Below, in pieces: positions 18,316-37,314 of a stretch of 64,000 nt of DNA. The stretch is from Vulcanimicrobiota bacterium (GTDB lineage Bacteria > Vulcanimicrobiota > Vulcanimicrobiia > Eremiobacterales > Eremiobacteraceae), in assembly GCA_963805945.1 (NCBI GenBank), contig CAWDVP010000002.1, positions 192,001 through 256,000 of the forward strand, written 5' to 3'. Each line of letters starts with the position of its first letter. Positions within the stretch are counted from its first letter, which is position 1. The position numbers and the translations under genes are program-made. The notes beneath the pieces are model-generated. The model searched no databases and had not been told where the DNA came from. It saw nothing but the letters and a program-made list of their open reading frames with translations.

Positions 18316-19188
18316 CTAGAGACTCGGAGTGACGGTCGGGTACGGCGAAGCCTCATACTGGGTTGGTACTGCCGCGGGCACCGGTACTCCCGTGTCCTCA
18401 GCCGCCGGCGGCGGGCTCGGCGAGGCTTCGACCGGCGCAGGAGCGCCGCGCGTGAACGTGCGCAGCACGACCGTCACCAGCGCGGTCGCATCGGTGCTGT
18501 TCTTCGAGGCCTTCTCCGAGATGACGCTGTCGCTGCGGACCGCTTGCCCGACGATGATGCCGTCGCGCTGATCGTAGTAGTACGTCCCCGCCAAGCTGAC
18601 GCTCGCCTCGATGGGCGCGCTGTCGTCCGCATACGCGCCGCCGCCTGTCGTCTGCACCACGAACGTCGGCAGGCCCTGGTAGACCTGCTGGCCGCGCGTC
18701 TGGCGGTTCAACGCGATCGTCATCGGATAGCTGTCCGCCGCGATCGACCAGCGCCAGGTCGGATTCGCCTGCAGATCCCGACCGGCGAGATCGCGCACGC
18801 TTGAATTCGCCAGCGCGATGTTCTGATCGAGCAGCGGGTCGATGCTCGCCGCCGGCTTGATCTCACCGGCGGGCGTGACGGTCACCGCCACGGTCTTGCG
18901 CAAGAAGACCGGCGCGCCGCGCGCGTAACCCAACATGTCCACGCTCAAGTTGCCGTGCGCGGTGCCGTCGGCATCGACCGCGACGACGTCGAGCGTCTCC
19001 GTGCCCATGCCGGTGCTGGTGTCGGTTTGGCCGCCACCGCGCGCAGCCGCCGCGTGCTCTTCCACTTGGACCGTCACGTCATAGGTAAGCCGGTCGCCCG
19101 CCCGCAAGTGCTGGCTGTCGGCGAGCGAGGGAATCGCAAAGGCGGCGATGGCGCAGCAGGCCGTGAGCGCCGCGGCACGATGGCTCAA
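18316..19188 (-). CDS. Hypothetical secreted protein
   Basis: Signal peptide, SD GGAGGG, beta-strand-rich body, Pro-rich tail. Confidence 0.7.
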   Translation of the reverse strand: MSHRAAALTACCAIAAFAIPSLADSQHLRAGDRLTYDVTVQVEEHAAAARGGGQTDTSTGMGTETLDVVAVDADGTAHGNLSVDMLGYARGAPVFLRKTVAVTVTPAGEIKPAASIDPLLDQNIALANSSVRDLAGRDLQANPTWRWSIAADSYPMTIALNRQTRGQQVYQGLPTFVVQTTGGGAYADDSAPIEASVSLAGTYYYDQRDGIIVGQAVRSDSVISEKASKNSTDATALVTVVLRTFTRGAPAPVEASPSPPPAAEDTGVPVPAAVPTQYEASPYPTVTPSL

Positions 19189-19232
19189 GAGTCCCCTCCC
19201 CGATGTGTGTGCGGAGCGAGTATACTACTCTT

Positions 19233-19871
19233 ATGGTCAATCGGACGTTTGCCGCTCGATACTTCGCGGCGGCCTTGTACGGCGCTGTGACTTCGCTCAC
19301 TCTGGCATTGCTGTCATCGGCCTCGCCAGCAGGCGCGGCACAGGCGGATGACGGCTACGCGACCCCGTTCGCGCAGGCGGTTCGCACCGCCACAGCCCCG
19401 TATCGCCTGGCGCTATGGGCGCGCTCCGACAAATACATCCAATCCACCGACTATCTACCCGCGCTGGGCGCGATGTACACGAACCACGATCGCTTCAACC
19501 CGGCGGACCTCGGCCATCCGAGCATGCTCGTCTATGACGAGGCTGGCCGGCTCGTCGCCTGCGGCTATCAATTCACGCCCGGTGCGACGGTGCCGGCCGA
19601 GTTCGCCTCGGTGCCCGCAACCGCGTGGTACGAGATCCCCAAGCACGTGCATTACATCGTCAAGCAGGCGGGCGTGATGCATTACGGTCAGGCGCCGTGG
19701 GAGACGGACGAGAAACCGACCGCAGCGGCGCTGCGCGCGCACGGCTTGCTGCCGCCCGACGCGACATTAGAAGAAGCGTTCATCCATCCGGCGACGCGCG
19801 CCATCCTCGTGTGGGCATGGCTGCCCAACGCCGACGGTCTCTTCGCAGGCGAGAACGCGCTACTGCCTTAG
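19233..19871 (+). CDS. Hypothetical secreted protein
   Basis: Signal-like N-terminus and PSMLVYDEAGRLVACGY motif. Confidence 0.65.
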   Translation: MVNRTFAARYFAAALYGAVTSLTLALLSSASPAGAAQADDGYATPFAQAVRTATAPYRLALWARSDKYIQSTDYLPALGAMYTNHDRFNPADLGHPSMLVYDEAGRLVACGYQFTPGATVPAEFASVPATAWYEIPKHVHYIVKQAGVMHYGQAPWETDEKPTAAALRAHGLLPPDATLEEAFIHPATRAILVWAWLPNADGLFAGENALLP

Positions 19872-28334: not shown

Positions 28335-28732
28335 GTGGTCGCCAGCCTTGCCGAGCGGCGCGCGTCCGCGTTGGACTTCTGGTGGACATCGCGTACGACC
28401 GATTCGAGCTCGTCGATGTAGGAGAGGAAGCGCGTGCGGCCGGTGTGCGTGATGCGGCAGATGGTCGTCGGCCGGCCGTGGCCCGTCTCCTTGGTGATGG
28501 TGACGACGTCCATCTCGGCAAGCGCGGCGAGATGCCGGCTGAGGTTGCCGTCGGTCAAGCCGCACGCGTCTTGCAGATCCGTGAAGCTCAAGCCCTCGGG
28601 ATGCGCGACGAGGCAGGTGCAGACCGCCAGCCTGCCGCGCTCGTGGAAGATGCGTTGCAGGCCGTTATAGGCGTACGGCGCTTCGGTGCCGTTGAGGCGC
28701 GGCGCTTTCTTGGCCGCTTTGCGAGTGTTCAT
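28331..28732 (-). CDS. Winged-helix transcriptional regulator (ArsR/MarR-like)
   Basis: IFHERGRL, LSFTDL, LTDGNLSRHL, GRPTT. Confidence 0.85.
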   Translation of the reverse strand: MNTRKAAKKAPRLNGTEAPYAYNGLQRIFHERGRLAVCTCLVAHPEGLSFTDLQDACGLTDGNLSRHLAALAEMDVVTITKETGHGRPTTICRITHTGRTRFLSYIDELESVVRDVHQKSNADARRSARLATT

Positions 28733-29349
28733 GATATCTCCGATGGCGTGAGGGTTTCGCCGGCGATGAGCCAGCCGATCCAGAATTGTCCGAGCGCGAA
28801 GCCGGATGCCATGACCCACCACGCGAGCGCGGGCCATTGGTTCGGCAAGAGCAGCAGCAAGGCGCCCACCAGACCGAACATGGCGGCGACGTACATGACG
28901 CCCTTCGGTATGAGCGTGCGCGATGCGAACAGACCGAGACCGTAGCAGGCGTACCAGATACCGGGCAGCATGGCTGGGATGTGCTGGAGGTAGACCGCCA
29001 GACTGAGGACGGCGCCCAGGCCGATCGCGGGCAGGATGCTCAGGCTGACGGTGCGCGATTGATAGCGCGCGTGCCGGCCTTGGTGGCGTGCGAACCAGAT
29101 GAGCAGGTTGCCGTAGTAGACCGCCAGCGCGGCGGCCAGGCACGATAACCAGATGGCGAGATAGGAATGGACATCGGCGTCCGTGCGCGGGTGGGGCACG
29201 ATAACCAGCTGCGCCAGGCCGCCGACCAGGGCGATGCCACCGCTGATGACGGCGACCCCGCTCGAGTAGCCGCGGAAGCGCTGGACGCTGGCCAGCCGGT
29301 CGCGGACCTCGCCGAGATCAGCGAGCGCCCGTTCGACTTCGACGTTCAT
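28729..29349 (-). CDS. Hypothetical membrane protein
   Basis: About six hydrophobic segments. Overlaps the regulator start (ATGA). Confidence 0.75.
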   Translation of the reverse strand: MNVEVERALADLGEVRDRLASVQRFRGYSSGVAVISGGIALVGGLAQLVIVPHPRTDADVHSYLAIWLSCLAAALAVYYGNLLIWFARHQGRHARYQSRTVSLSILPAIGLGAVLSLAVYLQHIPAMLPGIWYACYGLGLFASRTLIPKGVMYVAAMFGLVGALLLLLPNQWPALAWWVMASGFALGQFWIGWLIAGETLTPSEIS

Positions 29350-29404: not shown

Positions 29405-30559
29405 TCAGTGGTGGGCGTGCGCGTGCTCTGATCCCGTCCGGTTCGCCCACCAGATGAGCGCCAGCACCCCCGCCACGAAGATGATATTGAGCACGGCGGT
29501 GTAGTCGAATTTGAGCTGCTCGACCTGCATGAGCAGGTCGCCCGTCGCCACCGGGATGTTGCCCGTCCAGGCGAAGGCCAACTCGACCACGAGGCCCGCG
29601 ATCACCATCGAGAGATAGAATACGCCGGTCATCGACAGCGCGAGTTTCCAGCCGTAGTACTTGCGGTATATGTCGATGAGCGGCAGCACGATGAGATCGG
29701 CGTATAGGAACGCGACGACGCCGCCGAAGCTCGCGCCGCCGTGCCACAGGACCGCAGCCAGCGGCACGTTGCCGATCGAGCACACGAAGCTCAAGATGGC
29801 GATGATCGGTCCGACGAGCGCGTTTTCGATGGTGCGCCAGAGCGGCGGCGCGTTGGTCACGAACAGATGGCCCCACCATGCGTCCGGGATCGCCACCGCG
29901 AGAAAGCCCGCTATGATGAAACCTAGGATGAGGTCGTTGCGCAACATCGACCAGTCCATCTGGAAGTAGTGCGCGACGTAGCGCCAGCCTTCGGGCGAGC
30001 GCAGCTTCTCCCCGAATGTGTTGCCGGGCGTGAGCATGTCGCCGTGATCGTGCTCGTGCTCGCCGTCCGCCTCTTCCACATGCGCCCGGCCTTCTTCGAT
30101 GACGCGCTTCGAGAGCAGCAGCCGCGCGAGCAGCACGAAGACCGCGATGAGGACAAAACCGCCGATCCACTCGGCCGCGACGAACGGCCAGCCCATGAGG
30201 CGCCACAGCACCAATCCCAGCTCGATGACGAGATTGGTCGAGGCGAACATGAAGACCATCGCGGTCGTGAATGCGGCGCCGCGCTTGAAGATCGATTTAG
30301 CCGTCGCGGCAGCCGCATAGCTGCACGAGGAGCTCGCCGCGCCCAGTCCCGTGGCGATCGCGATCTCGCGCAGACCCACTCGGCCCAGCAAGCGCGACAG
30401 GCCGTCCTTAGGGACGTATGCCTGGACCATCGCCGACGCGAGGAAGCCCAGCAGCAGCGACCACAGCACCACCCAGAACATCGCCGCGGACGCAAGCAGC
30501 CAGTGCCAGACGAACAGCACCGGGCCGGAAAGCGCGCCGAGCGCGGCGGTGGTCGACAT
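29405..30559 (-). CDS. Predicted permease (DUF318/ArsP-like)
   Basis: SSSCSY, FASTNLVIE, FVCSIGNVP, His-rich loop. Confidence 0.8.
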   Translation of the reverse strand: MSTTAALGALSGPVLFVWHWLLASAAMFWVVLWSLLLGFLASAMVQAYVPKDGLSRLLGRVGLREIAIATGLGAASSSCSYAAAATAKSIFKRGAAFTTAMVFMFASTNLVIELGLVLWRLMGWPFVAAEWIGGFVLIAVFVLLARLLLSKRVIEEGRAHVEEADGEHEHDHGDMLTPGNTFGEKLRSPEGWRYVAHYFQMDWSMLRNDLILGFIIAGFLAVAIPDAWWGHLFVTNAPPLWRTIENALVGPIIAILSFVCSIGNVPLAAVLWHGGASFGGVVAFLYADLIVLPLIDIYRKYYGWKLALSMTGVFYLSMVIAGLVVELAFAWTGNIPVATGDLLMQVEQLKFDYTAVLNIIFVAGVLALIWWANRTGSEHAHAHH

Positions 30560-30759
30560 TTGGCTAGTCCCTCTCCTTGGGGCGCGGCAAAACGCTGGAC
30601 AAGTGCACGGATTAGCCGGCCGTGCCGCAAGCGTATAGTAGGAGCAGACCGCGTTTTCTTGCTGCCGCGCGCTTCACCCGCCGAGAGGGCCTGCGAGGGC
30701 TGTACCGGCAGCGCGCGGAAAGCGTGGAAAAGTCGACATCGAGAGGAGACGCTGCGCAC

Positions 30760-31731
30760 ATGGACCTCGAGAAGCTCATCATCTACCGGGGCGGCAGTTT
30801 CGTGCCGTACGGGCAAGCCAAGGTCGGCGTTCTCACGCACGGCCTTAATTATGGCACCGGCTGTTTTGAGGGCATACGAGGCTACTGGAACGCGACGGCG
30901 GGCCAGCTCTACTTCTTCCGCCTGCTCGAGCACTACGAGCGGCTCGCGGCGTCTGCCAAGTTTCTGCTCATCGATCTCCCCGAGTCGGCGGAGAAGCTGT
31001 GCGCGCGCACGGCCGAACTGGCGCGGCGCAACGACTTGCATCAGGATCTGTACGTCCGGCCGCTCGCGTATAAGAGCGCCGAAGAGATCGGCGTGCGCCT
31101 GCACAAGGTCGATGACGAGTTCACCATCACCGCGGTGCCGCACAAGGCCTACTTCGACGCTTCCCAGGGCCTGCGCACGTGCGTCTCCTCGTGGCGGCGC
31201 ATCGACGACAACGTCGCGCCGGCACGCGCCAAGCTGACCGGCATCTACATCAATTCAGCGCTCGCCAAGACCGAAGCGGTGAGCAACGGCTTCGACGAAG
31301 CGATTATGCTCAACGGCGAAGGTCATGTGGCCGAAGGTAGCGCGCAGAACATCTTCATCGTGCGCGGCGGTGTTGCGATCACCCCGCCTGTGAGCGACGG
31401 CATCCTCGAAGGTATCACCCGGCGGACGATCATGGACTTGTGCAAGAGCGAGCTCGGCATCGAAGTCGTCGAACGTTCGGTCGACCGCAGCGAACTTTAT
31501 GTGGCAGACGAGATATTCTTGGCCGGCACGGCCGTCGAAGTGGCGCCTGTCGTCGAGGTGGACCACCGCCCGGTCGGCGGCGGCAAGGTCGGGCCTAAGT
31601 CAGCGGCGCTAAGGGATTTGTACCGAAAAGCCACGCTCGGCGAGCTCAAAGGCTACCGCCATTGGCTCACCCCGACCTACGATGTGGCGTCAACGCCTCG
31701 AATCCACCAGGCGGAAAAGGCAGCTTCTTAG
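30760..31731 (+). CDS. ilvE: Branched-chain amino acid aminotransferase
   Basis: HGLNYGTGCFEGIR, AKLTG, EGSAQNIF, ILEGITR, GTAVEV. Confidence 0.92.
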   Translation: MDLEKLIIYRGGSFVPYGQAKVGVLTHGLNYGTGCFEGIRGYWNATAGQLYFFRLLEHYERLAASAKFLLIDLPESAEKLCARTAELARRNDLHQDLYVRPLAYKSAEEIGVRLHKVDDEFTITAVPHKAYFDASQGLRTCVSSWRRIDDNVAPARAKLTGIYINSALAKTEAVSNGFDEAIMLNGEGHVAEGSAQNIFIVRGGVAITPPVSDGILEGITRRTIMDLCKSELGIEVVERSVDRSELYVADEIFLAGTAVEVAPVVEVDHRPVGGGKVGPKSAALRDLYRKATLGELKGYRHWLTPTYDVASTPRIHQAEKAAS

Positions 31732-31750
31732 GGAATTCGCGACTTCTGCA

Positions 31751-31799
31751 TTGCGGGAGCGGGCAAGCACGCCGTATAATTGGTGTGACCGGCGTCACA
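31751..31799 (+). promoter_or_regulatory. Sigma70-like promoter followed by a perfect CRP-type box
   Basis: TTGCGG-N18-TATAAT (31751-31780), then TGTGA-CCGGCG-TCACA (31784-31799). Confidence 0.65.
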
Positions 31800-31944
31800 T
31801 TGTGGCGTCGAAACCAATTGAATGCCCATTGTTGGCCCGGATCTTGAGCTGAAATGTTTGGTAGAACATAGCCAAGAGACGGTTCGCAGTGGTATCGTCA
31901 ACAGCACTTGGGGGGCTGATTCCACATCTTCAGCCTTAGTTAGC

Positions 31945-31986
31945 AAACAAAATGCGACCGCACCGCCTGGCAGTGGCGGTGCGATC
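31945..31986 (-). terminator. Putative intrinsic terminator on the minus strand
   Basis: Minus-strand RNA GAUCGCACCGCC-ACUGCCA-GGCGGUGCGGUC (12-bp stem including one G-U pair), then GCA-UUUUGUUU. Confidence 0.5.
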
Positions 31987-32036
31987 TAAGGCGTTGTGGC
32001 ATCCTCTCCGAGTTCTACGATTGCTGGAGGCATATC

Positions 32037-32198
32037 ATGGAGCTTGGTGGACACATTCACGCCTTTGCGTTATATGCTGGCGTGTTCTTCGGCCAGCTTG
32101 CACATACGCTCGAGACGCTGATCACGGGCGGGGCACACCCGGCCGAGACACTCATCACGGGCGGCGTGCATACCGCGGAAACCCTCATTACCGGATAG
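32037..32198 (+). CDS. 53-aa precursor peptide with three ETLITG cores
   Basis: GGAGG SD 6 nt upstream. MELGGHIHAFALYAGVFFGQLA-HTLETLITGGA-HPAETLITGGV-HTAETLITG. Core codons differ only synonymously. Confidence 0.85.
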   Translation: MELGGHIHAFALYAGVFFGQLAHTLETLITGGAHPAETLITGGVHTAETLITG

Positions 32199-32217
32199 GG
32201 CGATCATCGTCAGGTCC

Positions 32218-33549
32218 TCATGCGATCTCTCGGCACAGTAAGTCGACGAGCTGAGGATCGTATTGGGTGCCGGCCCGCTCTGAAAGTACGCGCAGCGCTT
32301 CCTGCTTGTTCAGTTGCGTGGTCGCATTGTGACCTGTAAGTAGGCACAAATAATCGCGGGTGATCGCGATAATGCGCGAAGCCACAGGGATGCGCGTCAA
32401 GCGCATGCCGTGTGGATAGCCAGTGCCGTCGAATGCTTCGCACTGATGTTCAACCGCATAAGCCACCTCTTCCGGAATGATGCGGGGTGCCTTGCGGAGC
32501 ACTTTTCCACCCAGTGTAGGATAGCGAAGGGCCTCTTGCTGCTGAGCGGGCGTCAAGTTAATGCCAGCTCGCAGTTCCGGAGTGAGCTTGCACTTCCCGA
32601 TCTCGTGGAATTCCGCCGCCCACGCAAGGTTCTCTAAGTCCGCCTTAACCATGCCAAGCTTGCGGCCCATCTGAACCGCAAGGTAGCGGACGTCGCCGGC
32701 GAACTGTGCATCATCAGGACTTAACAGGCCAATGAACTCTCGCATCATCTCGTGGAATTGGTTGACGACGAAATCGCGTTCATCGCGGGCCTCAACTGCT
32801 TGGATTATGCGCTCGAACATACGCGTGTGCGCGACGACGTAGTAGAAAACAATAGCCCCTAGAATTCCGCCGAAGCCGTACATCCCAGCCAAAAGGTAGG
32901 CCCAAAGAGCCGCGACAAAGCCAGCGCGCCAGTAGCGTACGAACGATGCCGGCTGGCCGAGAATTGCGAATCCTAGGATTACTAGTGCATTGTTTACAGT
33001 CTGCCAGATGATCCCAATCCCCACGACGCCGACGAGAACAAGGGGCGCGTAGAGAAAGTGCGATATTCGCGGCGCGAGGCCGAGAATAACTGCATAGGAC
33101 TGGACCATCAAGAAAACCGCTATAACAGATATCCCCAGTTGACCCGCCAATGCTGGTATCGCTTGGGCGGCTGGGCGACCGGCGGCAATCAGGCGCAAGT
33201 GAACGGCGGAAAGACCGACAACCGCAAGCGGTAGCGCCCACCAACCGACCATCGCCGTGGCTGCCGCTAGTATTGCCGCGACCGGCGCATGCACCGCGCG
33301 GAAACCTTCCTGGGGTCGCTCGTTCAGCGCGAGGAAAGCACCTACCAGCACGACGCTGATTATGGTTGCATACGAAGTGTCAAAATGCGGTGGAACGAGC
33401 ACCAAGAGTGCGGCACCCGCAATCAACAGTGCCCAATAGTAAGCGACTTTGAGTCCCTGTCGCCATGCAACAACATCTTGTTGCAGACCAGTTGCTGGAG
33501 CGCTGATCCGCTCGAGTTGCGCCTGCCCTGCCACGGCCATGACGCTCAC
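32218..33549 (-). CDS. Multi-pass membrane protein with degenerate HD-GYP domain
   Basis: Roughly 7-8 hydrophobic segments. C-terminal FHEIGK, DGTGYPHG, IPVASRIIAI, GTQYDP. Confidence 0.85.
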   Translation of the reverse strand: MSVMAVAGQAQLERISAPATGLQQDVVAWRQGLKVAYYWALLIAGAALLVLVPPHFDTSYATIISVVLVGAFLALNERPQEGFRAVHAPVAAILAAATAMVGWWALPLAVVGLSAVHLRLIAAGRPAAQAIPALAGQLGISVIAVFLMVQSYAVILGLAPRISHFLYAPLVLVGVVGIGIIWQTVNNALVILGFAILGQPASFVRYWRAGFVAALWAYLLAGMYGFGGILGAIVFYYVVAHTRMFERIIQAVEARDERDFVVNQFHEMMREFIGLLSPDDAQFAGDVRYLAVQMGRKLGMVKADLENLAWAAEFHEIGKCKLTPELRAGINLTPAQQQEALRYPTLGGKVLRKAPRIIPEEVAYAVEHQCEAFDGTGYPHGMRLTRIPVASRIIAITRDYLCLLTGHNATTQLNKQEALRVLSERAGTQYDPQLVDLLCREIA

Positions 33550-33636
33550 CAGTGCCTTTCGTCAGGTCCGCGCCCGGGATAACGTCATATTAGCGAGACG
33601 TATGGGGTCGCGACCCTGTGGATAGTATATCGAACA

Positions 33637-33694
33637 TGTGACGCAAATCCCCACGAATTTGTGACAGCCCGCACAGGGTATGACGCTCATCACG
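33637..33694. promoter_or_regulatory. Tandem CRP-like boxes upstream of the HD-GYP gene
   Basis: TGTGA-N6-TCCCC (33637), TGTGA-N6-GCACA (33660), TATGA-N6-TCACG (33679). Minus-strand TATACT at 33624-33629. Confidence 0.5.
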
Positions 33695-33709
33695 CACACG
33701 TGTTCGAAC

Positions 33710-33732
33710 CCCGAGCTTCGCTCGGGCGCTAC
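33710..33732. repeat. REP-like palindrome, family C
   Basis: CCCGAGCTTCGCTCGGGCGCTAC, overlapping the serine hydrolase stop codon. Confidence 0.7.
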
Positions 33733-34694
33733 AGGCCGGTGGGAGAGGCCTCGGGCAGCGGGGCCTCGGTTGGCGTGGCCACCGGCAGCACCGGGGGGAC
33801 TTCCGCAGCGAGGAAGGCGTCGTAGGTCGCCCTGGAGGCCCTGCGGATAAGCCGGGCGCCGTCATCGAGATCGTCCAGGTGCGTCGTCAGCACGCAGATC
33901 ACGTACGGCGAGCCGGGCAACGCGACGATGCCGACGTCGTTGAGCGTGTCGTGCAGCGTGCCCGTCTTGTGCGCCACCACAACCCCGTGCGGCAAAGGCT
34001 CGGGCAGCAACTGGTTGTGCCGCTGCGCCGTGAGAAACGCGAGCATGACGTCGCTGGCCTGCTCGTTGATGAGCCGGCGCGTGGCGATCATGACGAGCAG
34101 GCGCATCATGTCATTGGTGCTCGTGCGCAGCTGGCGGATCGAGGGATCGCTCGCGTGAATGCTGGCGCCCAAGCGCGTCTGGGTCAGCCCCAGCCCGATC
34201 ATGGTCTGATTGATGTTCTCACGCCCGACCAGCCGGATGAGCATGTTCGTGGCCGTGTTGTCGCTGTTCGCGATCATGATCCGCGTGAGGTTGCGGACCG
34301 AGAACGTCATGCCCGCCGCGAAGTCGCACACGTCGCCGTAGCCGCAATCGCGGTCTTCCGGCAGCAGTTCCACTTGGCGATCGAGCGAGAAGCGGCCGAG
34401 CGATTCTTGCCGCAGCACTTCGACCATGACCGCGAGTTTGATCACGCTCGCCGCTGGCAGGTTCTCGTCGCCGTTGATGCTGATCGGCATGCGCCCTTGC
34501 GCGTCCGCGATCGTGATCGCGACCAAACCCGGCGTGTTATTGGCCAGGCGCCGCAGCTCGGGTTCGAGCGCGGCCATGCGAGCATCGCGCGCCACAGGCA
34601 CGTCAGGGGCCGGGAGCACGAGACCGGCGGACATGCCGCCGCCGGCCGCGATGAGCGCAGCAGCGAGCAGCATGGTGAAAAAGGCCCAACGCAT
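33729..34694 (-). CDS. Class A beta-lactamase-related serine hydrolase
   Basis: ASVIK, SDN and HKTG motifs, plus a signal or anchor sequence. Confidence 0.85.
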   Translation of the reverse strand: MRWAFFTMLLAAALIAAGGGMSAGLVLPAPDVPVARDARMAALEPELRRLANNTPGLVAITIADAQGRMPISINGDENLPAASVIKLAVMVEVLRQESLGRFSLDRQVELLPEDRDCGYGDVCDFAAGMTFSVRNLTRIMIANSDNTATNMLIRLVGRENINQTMIGLGLTQTRLGASIHASDPSIRQLRTSTNDMMRLLVMIATRRLINEQASDVMLAFLTAQRHNQLLPEPLPHGVVVAHKTGTLHDTLNDVGIVALPGSPYVICVLTTHLDDLDDGARLIRRASRATYDAFLAAEVPPVLPVATPTEAPLPEASPTGL

Positions 34695-34777
34695 ACAACG
34701 ACCACTCTTCTTGGCGGCGGCACGGGACCGCCTGCCTTTCGGCATGAATCGCGCGCTGCGTCACGAACCGACAGCCG

Positions 34778-35677
34778 ATGCGCGACCTTGATATTATCGG
34801 CGTTCCTATCGACTATGGCGCAAGCAAGCATGGCGCGCGCCTGGGACCCGACGCAGTGCGCGAGGCCGGCCTGACCGAAAGCCTCGCGAAACTAGGCCTG
34901 CAGGTCCACGATCAGGGCAACGTCGCGGTGCCGGAGTCCAAGGACGGCGTGGCCGGTGGCCCGGGCCGCCCCCGGCATATCGAGGCCGTACGCCAGGCCA
35001 ACCTCAACCTCGCGGACGCCGTCGAGCGCTCCGCCCGCGCCGGCCGCTTCACCCTGGTCATCGGCGGTGACCACTCCATCGCCATCGGCATCCTGGCCGG
35101 GCTGGCGCGCGCGCAAGGCCCGCAGGGCCTCATCTGGATCGACGCCCATGCCGACCTCAACACCCCTGCCACCAGCCCCACCGGCAACATCCATGGCATG
35201 GCGCTGGCGATCGCGCTCGGCGAGGCCCGCGACATCTTCCCCGCCGCGAAGTTCCCCGCGCCATCGGTGGACGCCAAGCGCTGCGTCTTCATCGGCCTGC
35301 GCGATCTCGACCCCGCCGAGCGTCGCTCGCTGCGTGAGCGCGGGTTCACCTGCTTCACCATGTCCGACATCGACAAGCTCGGCATGAACACCGTCATGCA
35401 ACAAGCGCTGAAGGCCGCCTGTGACGGGCCCGGTAGCGTGCACGTCAGCCTCGACATCGACTCGGTGGATCCGAGCCTCGCCCCCGGCACGGGCACGCCG
35501 GTGGCGGGCGGCCTCACCTATCGCGAAGCGCATCTTGCCATGGAGATGATCGCCGAGAGCGGCTGCGCCGGCTCCATGGAAGTCACCGAAGTGAATCCGG
35601 TGCTCGACGAGCACAGCCGCACGGCGACGATCGCCGTCGAGCTCATATGCTCGGCGCTCGGCAAGAGCATTCTCTAA
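34778..35677 (+). CDS. rocF: Arginase
   Basis: GGDHS, DAHADLN, GNIHGM, SLDIDSVDP, EVNP. Confidence 0.92.
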   Translation: MRDLDIIGVPIDYGASKHGARLGPDAVREAGLTESLAKLGLQVHDQGNVAVPESKDGVAGGPGRPRHIEAVRQANLNLADAVERSARAGRFTLVIGGDHSIAIGILAGLARAQGPQGLIWIDAHADLNTPATSPTGNIHGMALAIALGEARDIFPAAKFPAPSVDAKRCVFIGLRDLDPAERRSLRERGFTCFTMSDIDKLGMNTVMQQALKAACDGPGSVHVSLDIDSVDPSLAPGTGTPVAGGLTYREAHLAMEMIAESGCAGSMEVTEVNPVLDEHSRTATIAVELICSALGKSIL

Positions 35678-35710: not shown

Positions 35711-36673
35711 GTGATCGTGGTGTGCGCACTCGCCTTCAACGTCGTCGCCGGCTTCAACGACGGCGGCAATCTGCTCGCCGCGGCGGCGTCCAGCCGCACC
35801 ATCGCGCCAGGCGTCGCGTATTTCCTGATCGTCGGTTTCGCGTTTGTCGGCCCCTTCGTCTTCGGGACCGCGGTGGCCACCACGTTGGGGGCAGGCATCG
35901 CCGATTACACGACGTTGGGAGCGCCTTTGCTGCTCGCCGCCGTCCTCGCCGCTGTGGTCGCCGTGCTCGTCGCGTACGCCGCACGTGTCCCCACCATGAT
36001 GTCGCTCGCGCTCCTGTGCGCCATGGTGGGCTCGCTGCTCGTCGGCCCCGGGGCAGGCGTCATCCATTGGCCAGGCGTCGTCAAGGTCGCGTTGAGCACG
36101 TCAGGCTCGGCGCTGGTGGGCCTGCTCGCGGGCATGGCCGCCTATGCGGTGCTGCGCTTCCTCTTGCGGCCGGTATCGCGTGCGGCCGGCGACCGCCTCA
36201 TGCACCTGCAGTACGGCACCGTCGCGCTCCAAGCGCTTGGCTACGGCGCGAACGACGCCGAGAAGATGATGGGCATGATGGCGGCCGCAGGCGCTTTGCA
36301 GGCTGGTTCGCACGTCTTCGCGGTGCCGTTGTGGGCGATCGCCGGCGCGATAGCCGCCTTTGCGATGGGCATGGCGGTCGGCGGACTGCGAGTCGCCAAG
36401 ACCGTCGGCGGCAAGCTCTTCACCATCCGCCCGCAGCACGCGCTCGCGTTTCAGGGTGCGGCCGGTTCCACGGTGATCGCCGCCGCGCTGCTCGGCGCGC
36501 CGCTTTCCACAACCGAGACGACGGCGAGCGCCATCGTCGGCGTCGGGGCGATAGCACAGCCGCGACGCGTCCATTGGGATGTCGTCGCGCAAATCGCGCG
36601 CGCGTGGCTGCTGACCGTGCCCATAGCGCTCGCGGCCGGCGCGCTCGCTGGATTGATCGTGCGATGGCTCTGA
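35711..36673 (+). CDS. Inorganic phosphate transporter, PiT family
   Basis: GFNDGGN and GANDAEK signatures. Followed by DUF47. Confidence 0.85.
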   Translation: MIVVCALAFNVVAGFNDGGNLLAAAASSRTIAPGVAYFLIVGFAFVGPFVFGTAVATTLGAGIADYTTLGAPLLLAAVLAAVVAVLVAYAARVPTMMSLALLCAMVGSLLVGPGAGVIHWPGVVKVALSTSGSALVGLLAGMAAYAVLRFLLRPVSRAAGDRLMHLQYGTVALQALGYGANDAEKMMGMMAAAGALQAGSHVFAVPLWAIAGAIAAFAMGMAVGGLRVAKTVGGKLFTIRPQHALAFQGAAGSTVIAAALLGAPLSTTETTASAIVGVGAIAQPRRVHWDVVAQIARAWLLTVPIALAAGALAGLIVRWL

Positions 36674-36696
36674 TAACTCGAGGGAGGTAGCACCCC

Positions 36697-37314
36697 ATGT
36701 GGCTGTCCGATTTGTTCACCGCCCGCAAGCAGCGGGTGTTCCACGAGCTGCTCATGGCGCAGTGCGGCACGCTGCTCGAGGCCGCGCACCTGCTCGAACG
36801 TTTCTTCGCGCGTGAGTCGACGACCGCGGTCGAGCAGGCCGACGCACTCGATAAGCGCTCCGAAGAGATCCTCGAGCAGATCGTCGCCGCGCTCACCGAC
36901 ACCTTCGTGACGCCCTTCGACCGCCAGGACATCTACAATCTCAGCGAAGCGCTCGACGACATGATTGATTATCTCGACAACGCCGCGCGCGAGGTGGTCC
37001 TCTTCGAGGTCGCGGCGACGCCGGCGATGATCGAGATCGCGCACATCCTCAGCGGTGCCGCGAACGACATCAACATCGCCGTGCGCACCATCGCGAGCGA
37101 TCCGAAGACGGCGGCCGCGGCGGCGACCGCGGCCTCGCTTGCCGAGGAGAAGGTCGAGGACGTCTACCGGCGCACCGTCGCGCATCTTTTCGACAGCGCC
37201 GACTTCCACCATATCTTCAAGGTGCGCGAGATCTATCGCCACCTGAGCAACAGCGCCGACCGCGCCGACGATATCGGCAAGCTGATCGGCAAGGTCGTGG
37301 TGAAGGTCGCCTAG
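36697..37314 (+). CDS. DUF47 phosphate transport regulator
   Basis: TFVTPFDRQDIYNLSEALDD. Confidence 0.85.
   Translation: MWLSDLFTARKQRVFHELLMAQCGTLLEAAHLLERFFARESTTAVEQADALDKRSEEILEQIVAALTDTFVTPFDRQDIYNLSEALDDMIDYLDNAAREVVLFEVAATPAMIEIAHILSGAANDINIAVRTIASDPKTAAAAATAASLAEEKVEDVYRRTVAHLFDSADFHHIFKVREIYRHLSNSADRADDIGKLIGKVVVKVA

Follow-up and report, generated by a model that had tools for sequence, protein, structure and literature searches.

A small protein with repeated motifs, encoded convergently with a membrane HD-GYP-fold protein in Vulcanimicrobiota, as a tentative receptor partner

The small gene and its family

The stretch of Vulcanimicrobiota bacterium DNA analysed here, 64,000 nucleotides (nt) of contig CAWDVP010000002.1 and called the window below, holds two convergent genes between an ilvE-like gene and a gene of the Beta-lactamase2 family. 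One is an open reading frame (ORF) of 53 codons whose product, MELGGHIHAFALYAGVFFGQLAHTLETLITGGAHPAETLITGGVHTAETLITG, begins MELGG and ends ETLITG; the other encodes a 443-residue membrane protein with an HD-GYP-fold C-terminal domain, which we call the receptor after its proposed role. An earlier note on this DNA had described the ORF, its GGAGG Shine-Dalgarno (SD) sequence, three 11-residue units, a gap of 19 nt between the facing stop codons (from 32198 to 32218), a local dip in GC content and CRP-type boxes upstream of both genes. All six points were confirmed from the coordinates and the letters (Table 1). The interpretation placed on them, that exported peptides are sensed by the membrane domain and relayed through the HD-GYP module, is partly supported when taken as a whole. 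The reading proposed here, tentatively and with rather less than an even chance of being right, is that the cell retains the small protein as a multivalent partner of a receptor with MASE9-like membrane part and non-catalytic HD-GYP domain, to which a shared operator and antisense overlap would tie it.

Whether the ORF is a gene was assessed at orthologous loci. From a protein collection 27 near relatives of the receptor were aligned (alignment A1), and a genome scan with the same protein gave 80 loci, 12 of which (L001-L011 and L015) are orthologous over more than the HD-GYP domain, the other 68 matching that domain alone. Two of the 12 are cut by contig ends; counts over 13 loci refer to the window plus these 12. 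Scanning for a neighbouring small ORF, a check suggested in the earlier note, gave an opposite-strand ORF with an SD, 5-21 nt past the HD-GYP stop codon, in all 12 orthologous loci, a pattern that is therefore beyond chance. A strict scan for ETLIT-type repeats over the 80 loci finds matches in L001 and L004 only. The small ORF is intact, with SD and ATG, at 13/13 loci, and the ratio of non-synonymous to synonymous substitution rates (dN/dS, Nei-Gojobori) lies below 1 in 17/17 within-group pairs.

Judged by this conservation, the 53-codon ORF encodes a real, translated small protein of an unnamed family, as had been supposed. The converse, that it is untranslated and that only DNA or RNA matters here (whether antisense element, terminator region or tandem DNA repeat), could draw on the opposite-strand frames over the region, which are also open, and on a conserved hairpin and operator nearby (see below). 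We give it next to no credence, since it is already contradicted by the data: by the SD, ATG and dN/dS figures just given, by 45 synonymous against 2 non-synonymous differences between the repeats (see below), and by the lack of any tandem repeat at the DNA level. A leader-peptide attenuator for ilvE was also considered and discarded, the ORF being downstream of ilvE with nothing after it on the same strand.

A search of 1.84 billion representatives followed by a profile search, with obvious low-complexity matches dropped, yields a family of 60 distinct proteins of 35-68 residues. Six low-complexity repeat proteins (P0074, P0078, P0080, P0081, P0082 and P0084) were rejected as relatives by eye. 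Those members that source databases name are called hypothetical, no family peptide matches a Pfam or NCBIfam entry, and the ESM Atlas returned no usable match for the 53-residue peptide. Our literature search, which did not cover all journals, found no description of the family or of a small-protein partner of a MASE9/HD-GYP protein. So far the family has been seen only in metagenome-assembled genomes of Eremiobacterota/Vulcanimicrobiota type. Two loci carry other labels, Candidatus Binatus for L002 and 'uncultured proteobacterium' for L007; both have the full syntenic block (see below) and nest among loci labelled Eremiobacterota/Vulcanimicrobiota.

Common to the whole family is an N-terminal helix rich in Gly and His. 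Its pattern is ..GG.LHAF.LH.G.. in group A, to which the window belongs, and ..LGGVL....H..GGVL....H..H in group B. An AlphaFold 2 (AF2) model of the peptide alone has a helix at residues 3-31 with pLDDT 72-79. After the helix, in alignment A6, comes a short motif [DE]-[STAY]-[LIG]-[IV]-x, often with H-x-x ahead of it; its five residues are of acidic, hydroxyl and aliphatic type, [DE]-[ST]-[LI]-[IV]-x in the stricter form. The earlier note had spoken of a hydrophobic leader, the one inexact term in its description: the Kyte-Doolittle 19-residue maximum is moderate in the window's clade, at 0.66-1.21, below the usual 1.6 for a transmembrane (TM) segment. Group-B-type helices, with a median of 1.92, are TM-like.

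Repeated motifs and the fate of the small protein

The three units of the window's protein read AHTLETLITGG, AHPAETLITGG and VHTAETLITG, and the repeat is visible in the protein only. Their ETLIT cores differ pairwise at 2, 5 and 4 of 5 codons, every difference being synonymous, and at the DNA level the units are identical at just 19-26 of 33 nt. Tandem Repeats Finder reports no DNA repeat because the units have diverged at synonymous sites. Over five loci, 75 comparisons between copies give 45 synonymous and 2 non-synonymous codon differences, and the only DNA-identical copies are units 2 and 3 of L002. The identity of the copies is thus kept by selection on the peptide, not by recent gene conversion.

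Copy number varies across the family. By a simple pattern, one copy is found in 14 of the 60 members, two in 2, three in 12 and four in 6, the remaining 26, counted as zero, having variant single motifs. Among the copies of a multi-copy protein (20/60) the first four core residues are alike in 19 cases of 20, and nine different four-residue cores occur across the family. Cores are spaced 7-13 residues apart, with linkers such as GG, AGP, AN, SGPMF, PQ and SP, among others. Distant orthologues, whose receptors are 30-38% identical, have peptides of 36-40 residues that align to the helix and first repeat only; the triple core is thus a clade-specific expansion of a single C-terminal motif, and a fixed triple core finds no support. 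Independent expansion has occurred on the group B scaffold, with three copies in P0094 and two each in P0100 and P0113. In a tree of the receptors, built without L015 (which has a stop in frame) and with L004 cut to its first 296 residues, the loci with three copies are monophyletic at 100/100 support and L002, with three copies of ETIIA, nests among loci with three of ETLIT, so that all three copies must have changed together. The repeated core is accordingly the selected functional unit that it had been taken for. This concerted behaviour of the cores is the strongest new result of the analysis; each copy would have to satisfy the same recognition partner.

The same facts suit an exported signal, in which the precursor would be cut into one to four identical peptides for the neighbouring receptor to sense through its membrane domain, with the cores of different lineages as pherotypes. 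The variable copy number, the cores alike within a protein and different between lineages and held by selection rather than conversion, the linkers variable in sequence and length and the independence of the expansions all speak for it. The receptor's sensor would, moreover, be a membrane-embedded MASE-type bundle, and for MASE9 ligand binding within the membrane is proposed in a passage of 10.1101/2021.11.05.467447. Finally, the Beta-lactamase2 protein, of a periplasmic serine-hydrolase fold and encoded at 10/12 loci, could in principle process the peptide.

The peptides themselves, however, look unlike export substrates. With the presence of Lys or Arg in the first 20 residues as the measure of an export signal, none of 53 family peptides has either residue there, which means no n-region of the Sec or Tat type. 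No cleavage site is conserved in the linkers of the family alignment, as the GG linker is specific to the window. Neither the block genes over the 12 loci nor the Pfam annotation of the window include an exporter, a dedicated protease or a modifying enzyme, and the conserved block has no C39 peptidase or AgrB-like gene; the only candidate hydrolase near the small gene that might act on the peptide is the periplasmic-type Beta-lactamase2 protein. Conservation in the family is highest in the N-terminal helix, which would not be expected of a disposable leader, and in 40/60 members a single or variant motif stands at the very C-terminus. Lys or Arg in the last six residues of 27/38 group-B-type peptides suggests a cytoplasmic tail, the positive-inside rule placing this C-terminus inside; Asp or Glu occurs in the first 20 residues of 15/15 group-A-type peptides. 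Export, as the earlier note had it, thus finds no backing in n-region, cleavage site or neighbouring genes, and we regard an exported signal as improbable. Indirectly, the evidence weighs towards a protein retained by the cell with its tail in the cytoplasm, and away from a classical secreted precursor.

A conserved N-terminal 'leader' ahead of repeated cores with many Asp/Glu and Thr/Ser residues also recalls a peptide made on the ribosome and modified after translation (RiPP), and multi-core graspetide precursors exist. The Thr/Ser and Asp/Glu side chains would then be cross-linked or altered in some other way, graspetide-like multi-core peptides being one example, by enzymes encoded elsewhere. 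Yet neither the Pfam annotation of the window nor the syntenic block contains a gene of ATP-grasp, radical-SAM, YcaO, lanthionine or peptidase type, and many members have just one short, variable motif. A RiPP precursor appears very improbable to us.

The membrane protein, its promoters and the locus

The receptor is, as had been described, a convergent multi-TM protein with an HD-GYP fold. Its membrane part has about eight hydrophobic segments within residues 32-240 by hydropathy. The AF2 model made from A1 (mean pLDDT 76) places helices at residues 19-51, 60-76, 88-122, 127-161, 164-197 and 203-242, those of the membrane part with pLDDT 60-92, after which come a stalk (residues 244-276) and a C-terminal domain made of helices. 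In the Atlas the clusters nearest to the membrane half are MASE9 (score 0.93, 202 shared features), and on language-model features alone the half may be MASE9-like, which we take as a lead only. The Pfam MASE9 model (PF20972) matches 0/26 members at E<=10, and Foldseek against the PDB gives no fold match for this half.

The C-terminal domain is recognised by Pfam HD_5 (residues 287-434, E 1.4e-25) and by Foldseek, with matches to 4mcw, 9rbz (DvhD) and 4r8z at E of about 5e-5 to 3e-4 and target-normalised TM-scores up to 0.74. Its motifs are degenerate, HEIGK replacing HDIGK and EHQCE replacing xHHE. FDGTGYP is kept, and in the GYP loop F373, D374, G375, G377 and P379 are invariant over 26 sequences and Y378 at least 90% conserved. 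HMMER alignments to 4mcw and 5z7c were used to map the eight metal ligands of PmGH given in PMC4159591. E185 corresponds to D279, a variable column in the family; H189 to F283, an invariant Phe; H221 to H315 and H276 to H368, both kept; D222 to E316, which is E, D or Q across the family; H250 to P344; H277 to Q369; and D305 to R398. Four of the eight positions thus hold non-ligand residues (H189F, H250P, H277Q and D305R), and in PmGH itself H250A and H277A are described as abolishing activity (PMC4159591). The c-di-GMP contact motifs of HD-GYP domains given in 10.1101/2021.11.05.467447, KPG and RxY[KR], are likewise missing by alignment, G329-I330-N331 (GIN) standing for KPG and H407-N408-A409-T410 (HNAT) for the RxYK of R314-K317. 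Relay through an HD-GYP enzyme, part of the earlier interpretation, does not fit these residues: the domain is probably not a metal-dependent phosphodiesterase.

The two genes share an operator motif, which had also been claimed. In the small gene's promoter, TATAAT is perfect 3-7 nt ahead of the CRP-type box at 10/13 loci, with one mismatch at one locus and two at two others, and a TTGC-type -35 element some 17-18 nt further up is conserved in alignments A2 and A3; a consensus promoter scan did not list this sigma-70-like promoter. The box itself, with 0-1 mismatch, lies 222-276 nt ahead of the ATG at 13/13 loci. As it follows the -10 hexamer by 3 nt in the window, it would cover the predicted transcription start, a repressor-type position. 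Its half-sites are invariant and its central 4-6 nt variable, which suggests a protein-binding site rather than an RNA stem. Upstream of the receptor gene, a promoter block with three tandem boxes 87-137 nt from the start codon is nearly invariant in 5/5 group A loci, and one box of CGTGAC-N4-GTCACG type is conserved in 6/6 group B loci. Overall, boxes are conserved in 13/13 small-gene leaders and 11/11 receptor upstream regions; by position, those of the receptor gene would be at activation-type distances. No CRP-family, cyclase or GGDEF gene was found in the window.

Across the 64 kb, TGTGA-N6-TCACA with at most one mismatch occurs at 3 sites, against 0.96 expected, a number reached in 6 of 100 shuffles. 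Two of them are the perfect box of the small gene at 31784-31799 and the box with one mismatch at 33660-33675 upstream of the receptor gene. The shorter GTGAC-N4-GTCAC, again with up to one mismatch, is not enriched in the window (2 against 2.54 expected). The third site of the longer type (19286-19301, one mismatch) lies in the divergent spacer between the ORFs 18316-19188 (-) and 19203-19871 (+), which have no Pfam match and may share a regulon with the small gene and the receptor. A further inverted pair, TCGAACA...TGTTCGA, brackets the three receptor boxes (33630-33715) and is related to ATGTTTGGTAGAACAT.

Between the operator and the small gene lies a leader of about 240 nt. Its mean column identity over the five group A loci is 76%, and its indels are not multiples of three; it is non-coding. 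Within it, ATGTTTGGTAGAACAT is an inverted repeat ATGTT-N6-AACAT, nearly invariant in the five group A leaders, that may be a second protein-binding site, and ACTTGGGGGGCTGATTCCACA (31906-31930) is invariant or nearly so in the same leaders. Rfam at E<=1 gives no match over 30500-35000; the leader is thus not a known riboswitch, those for c-di-GMP included. RNAalifold gives a structure on both strands, with covariation in the hairpin only and there at one pair, for which reason no riboswitch-like claim is made. In the same calculation the G-run has as its pairing partner a stretch rich in C and U that lies immediately upstream of the SD, an arrangement that shows no covariation and could be a translational switch.

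The hairpin itself is terminator-like and belongs to the strand of the receptor gene. It recurs at the same site in L002, group B loci lacking this form, and shows one compensatory change, C-G to U-A, in 2/5 loci; one invariant pair reads U-G on the - strand, where the + strand would have the mismatch A-C. Since the hairpin is located beyond the small ORF, and since the gap between the stop codons contains no terminator, the receptor transcript would read antisense over the whole small gene.

The flanking genes proved to be as described, ilvE-like (Aminotran_4) and Beta-lactamase2 by Pfam, and the composition likewise, with GC at 0.55-0.60 over 31600-33600 against 0.64-0.70 in the flanks. Low GC at third codon positions (GC3) is common to the receptor genes of 6/8 orthologues, making it an old property of that gene; given this and the same syntenic place, recent horizontal transfer was dropped as the cause of the AT-rich cassette. 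The block comprises an ArsP permease, an unnamed ORF (28729-29349), ilvE, the small gene, the receptor, the beta-lactamase-like gene, arginase, PHO4 and a PhoU-like gene. ilvE is present at 12/12 loci, the beta-lactamase-like gene at 10/12 and arginase at 8/12, some misses falling at contig ends. Adjacency had been offered as evidence of a link. With the whole block, from ilvE to arginase, syntenic at every locus, the pairing was inherited once and adjacency is no independent evidence.

It is at this point that a rival has to be weighed in which the small protein acts independently in the membrane or under stress, perhaps like a type I toxin, its tie to the receptor gene being regulatory only, through the antisense 3' untranslated region of the receptor and interference between the two transcripts. 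Its product would be short and helical, and its leader of some 240 nt is conserved and structured; the two genes converge, the terminator-like hairpin of the opposite transcript lying beyond the ORF; and synteny accounts for the adjacency. The ORF is, furthermore, intact at two loci where the receptor frame is broken. In L004 (6001-7328) the receptor orthologue is in out-of-frame pieces, found as three tblastn segments, and in L015 (6001-7190) it has an in-frame stop and overlapping segments; these may be either sequencing indels, plausible in both assemblies, or real decay. However, an independent peptide leaves unexplained why purifying selection holds one to four copies identical and why these switch together between lineages, no family peptide matches a toxin family in Pfam or NCBIfam, the operator shared by both promoters points to one regulon, and group A helices are weakly hydrophobic. 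We consider such a peptide unlikely, though it retains a real share of our belief.

Some observations on neighbouring genes may be added. The ilvE-like ORF is listed with a GTG start at 30622, and most relatives align from about residue 47 (MDLEKL...), the true start probably being near 30760. The beta-lactamase-fold gene (class A), which shares the strand of the receptor gene and comes immediately upstream of it, encodes a basic and hydrophobic N-terminal segment. At 35711-37314 a PHO4-family phosphate transporter is followed by PhoU_div (DUF47), a pair present at 8/12 loci that looks like ordinary phosphate uptake.

Table 1. Positions of the locus features in the window (+ strand numbering)
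Feature	Position	Strand	Source or remark
Small protein gene, 53 residues	32037-32198	+	ORF listing, read from letters
SD GGAGG	32026-32030	+	6 nt ahead of ATG
N-terminal Gly/His-rich helix, residues 3-24, common to the whole family	32043-32108	+	alignment A6
Three 11-residue units, core ETLIT each	32100-32132, 32133-32165, 32166-32195	+	translation
Sigma-70-like promoter of small gene: TTGCGG 31751-31756, 18-nt spacer, TATAAT 31775-31780	31751-31780	+	read from letters
Perfect CRP-type palindrome TGTGACCGGCGTCACA	31784-31799		3 nt after -10 hexamer
Conserved leader, about 240 nt: ATGTTTGGTAGAACAT 31854-31869, G6 run 31910-31915, hairpin	31800-32036	+	alignment
Terminator-like hairpin, 12 pairs (9 G-C), T-rich tail GCATTTTGTT	31956-31986	-	same site in L002
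Gene for 443-residue membrane protein with HD-GYP-fold C-terminal domain	32218-33549	-	ORF listing, Pfam
Degenerate HD-GYP-like domain, residues ~279-443	32221-32715	-	Pfam HD_5, Foldseek, HMMER mapping
Multi-helix membrane domain, residues ~19-242	32824-33495	-	hydropathy, AF2
HD-GYP promoter region: three tandem CRP-like boxes, then TATACT 33624-33629 (+ strand ruler)	33624-33694	-	letters, box scan
HD-GYP boxes (mismatches)	33679-33694 (2), 33660-33675 (1), 33637-33652 (2)		
Aminotran_4, ilvE-like	30622-31731	+	Pfam
Beta-lactamase2	33729-34745	-	Pfam

A tentative partner pair and its counterparts

Our preferred reading, a cell-retained multivalent partner, would work as follows. The small protein would stay with the cell that makes it, its helix associated with the membrane and its motif-bearing C-terminus in the cytoplasm, as partner or ligand of the neighbouring receptor. 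Every copy of the motif would bind one and the same site; a change in the receptor would consequently have to be followed by all copies at once, and avidity would be tuned by their number. The HD-GYP-like domain would not be a phosphodiesterase but a switch without catalysis, working by binding of a nucleotide or by contact between proteins as in DvhD. A single CRP-family regulator acting on both promoters may repress the small gene and activate the receptor gene from some 70-130 nt upstream, and, together with the receptor messenger RNA running antisense through the small gene, this would lead to reciprocal expression of the two products, an expectation drawn from the arrangement of the promoters and transcripts.

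Several points weigh against this. The pairing is never seen outside one inherited context, and the small gene is equally constant beside ilvE. The helix of the window's clade has too polar a character to be a classical TM segment, at the hydropathy values given above, and the predicted topology draws on the positive-inside rule alone. A protein with identical short cores in varying number, joined by Gly/Pro/Ala/His linkers that vary as well, has the textbook appearance of a multi-core precursor destined for cleavage. Breaks in L004 and L015, if real, would mean that the receptor can be lost and the small protein kept. The assignments of promoter, repression and activation come from position, with no CRP-family gene in the window. 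Lastly, RpfG is described as active although it has Phe at the H189 position (PMC4159591), which makes degeneracy of an HD-GYP domain a matter of degree.

The boldest alternative joins export to the degenerate receptor: a pheromone system in which peptides of H-x-x-E-T-L-I-T type would be sensed within a MASE9-like bundle and relayed by a non-catalytic HD-GYP-fold switch, in a diderm and largely uncultured phylum. As part of it, the cores ETLIT, ETIIA, ESLVN, DSLIN, DTGVF, DYLIH and others would be pherotypes co-evolving with the receptor. We see this as quite improbable.

The retained partner that we favour has a close functional parallel in MgrB-PhoQ, in which a small membrane protein modulates a membrane sensor. 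Further small proteins of comparable setting are those of the DbfQ-DbfRS system, a small-protein/membrane-sensor pair (PMC12714742), and the small proteins under c-di-GMP riboswitches in C. difficile (PMC13724677). Like the modulators of MgrB type, the window's protein has fewer than 70 residues, one predicted helix and no enzymatic domain, and its gene lies next to that of a membrane signalling protein or shares its regulon. It differs from them in bearing one to four selected copies of a linear motif, in that the genes are convergent, with transcripts predicted to overlap, instead of forming one operon, and in that the sensor's output is a degenerate HD-GYP domain and not a kinase; there is no sequence relationship.

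Multi-core precursors are known in yeast alpha-factor, fungal Kex2-processed repeat proteins (PMC7329392), and cyanobactin and graspetide precursors. With these the family shares tandem identical short cores, variable linkers and a copy number that differs between relatives. In contrast to them, it is without a signal peptide, a conserved processing site and a nearby processing or export gene, and many of its members have a single C-terminal motif.

The peptide signalling systems Rap/Phr and AgrD/AgrB/AgrC are co-oriented or operonic, with known export and processing, single cores, and kinase or phosphatase receptors. AgrD begins with an amphipathic, membrane-associating helix. As in Rap/Phr and Agr, the small gene adjoins the gene of its proposed receptor, and as in AgrD its product has an N-terminal helix. 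To our knowledge, none of these systems uses an HD-GYP-fold output or comes from this phylum.

We also know of no ligands for the integral-membrane sensors fused to HD-GYP domains (MASE9-12). For a sensor of this type the small protein, if a true partner, would supply a first concrete candidate for ligand or partner, being genetically linked, co-regulated and equipped with a motif under selection. Repeats that are identical in the protein, drift at synonymous sites and switch together would be a clean sign of a specific recognition event, and the same signature could guide the search for other motif-receptor pairs in small ORFs that lack annotation. Among described MASE9-HD-GYP proteins, TM1467 and HdgA have a bundle of about eight membrane segments fused directly to HD-GYP, two of the segments forming an intramembrane hairpin (10.1101/2021.11.05.467447). 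The receptor may likewise have about eight segments, to judge by hydropathy, ahead of its HD-GYP-fold domain (six long helices in the AF2 model), with MASE9 its nearest language-model clusters; it differs in escaping the Pfam MASE9 model, as reported above. The same source describes MASE9 proteins with HD-GYP domains of catalytic type, and its section on them reports no partner small protein.

A counterpart in output is DvhD of Desulfovibrio vulgaris, a ligand-deficient HD-GYP membrane protein described as binding c-di-GMP without hydrolysing it and as signalling by movement of its stalk helices (PMC13090378). The receptor's domain also lacks key metal ligands, and DvhD is among its best fold matches (target-normalised TM-score 0.71-0.74). 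DvhD combines a dCache domain in the periplasm with a PAS domain, and its partners are a protease and an adhesin (PMC13090378; PDB 9rbz). In the window's protein, by contrast, a multi-helix membrane bundle is present, the His of the HD motif is kept and contacts of RxYK type are missing. With DvhD as the first, the locus would probably add a second instance in which an HD-GYP fold has been put to new use as a switch without catalysis.

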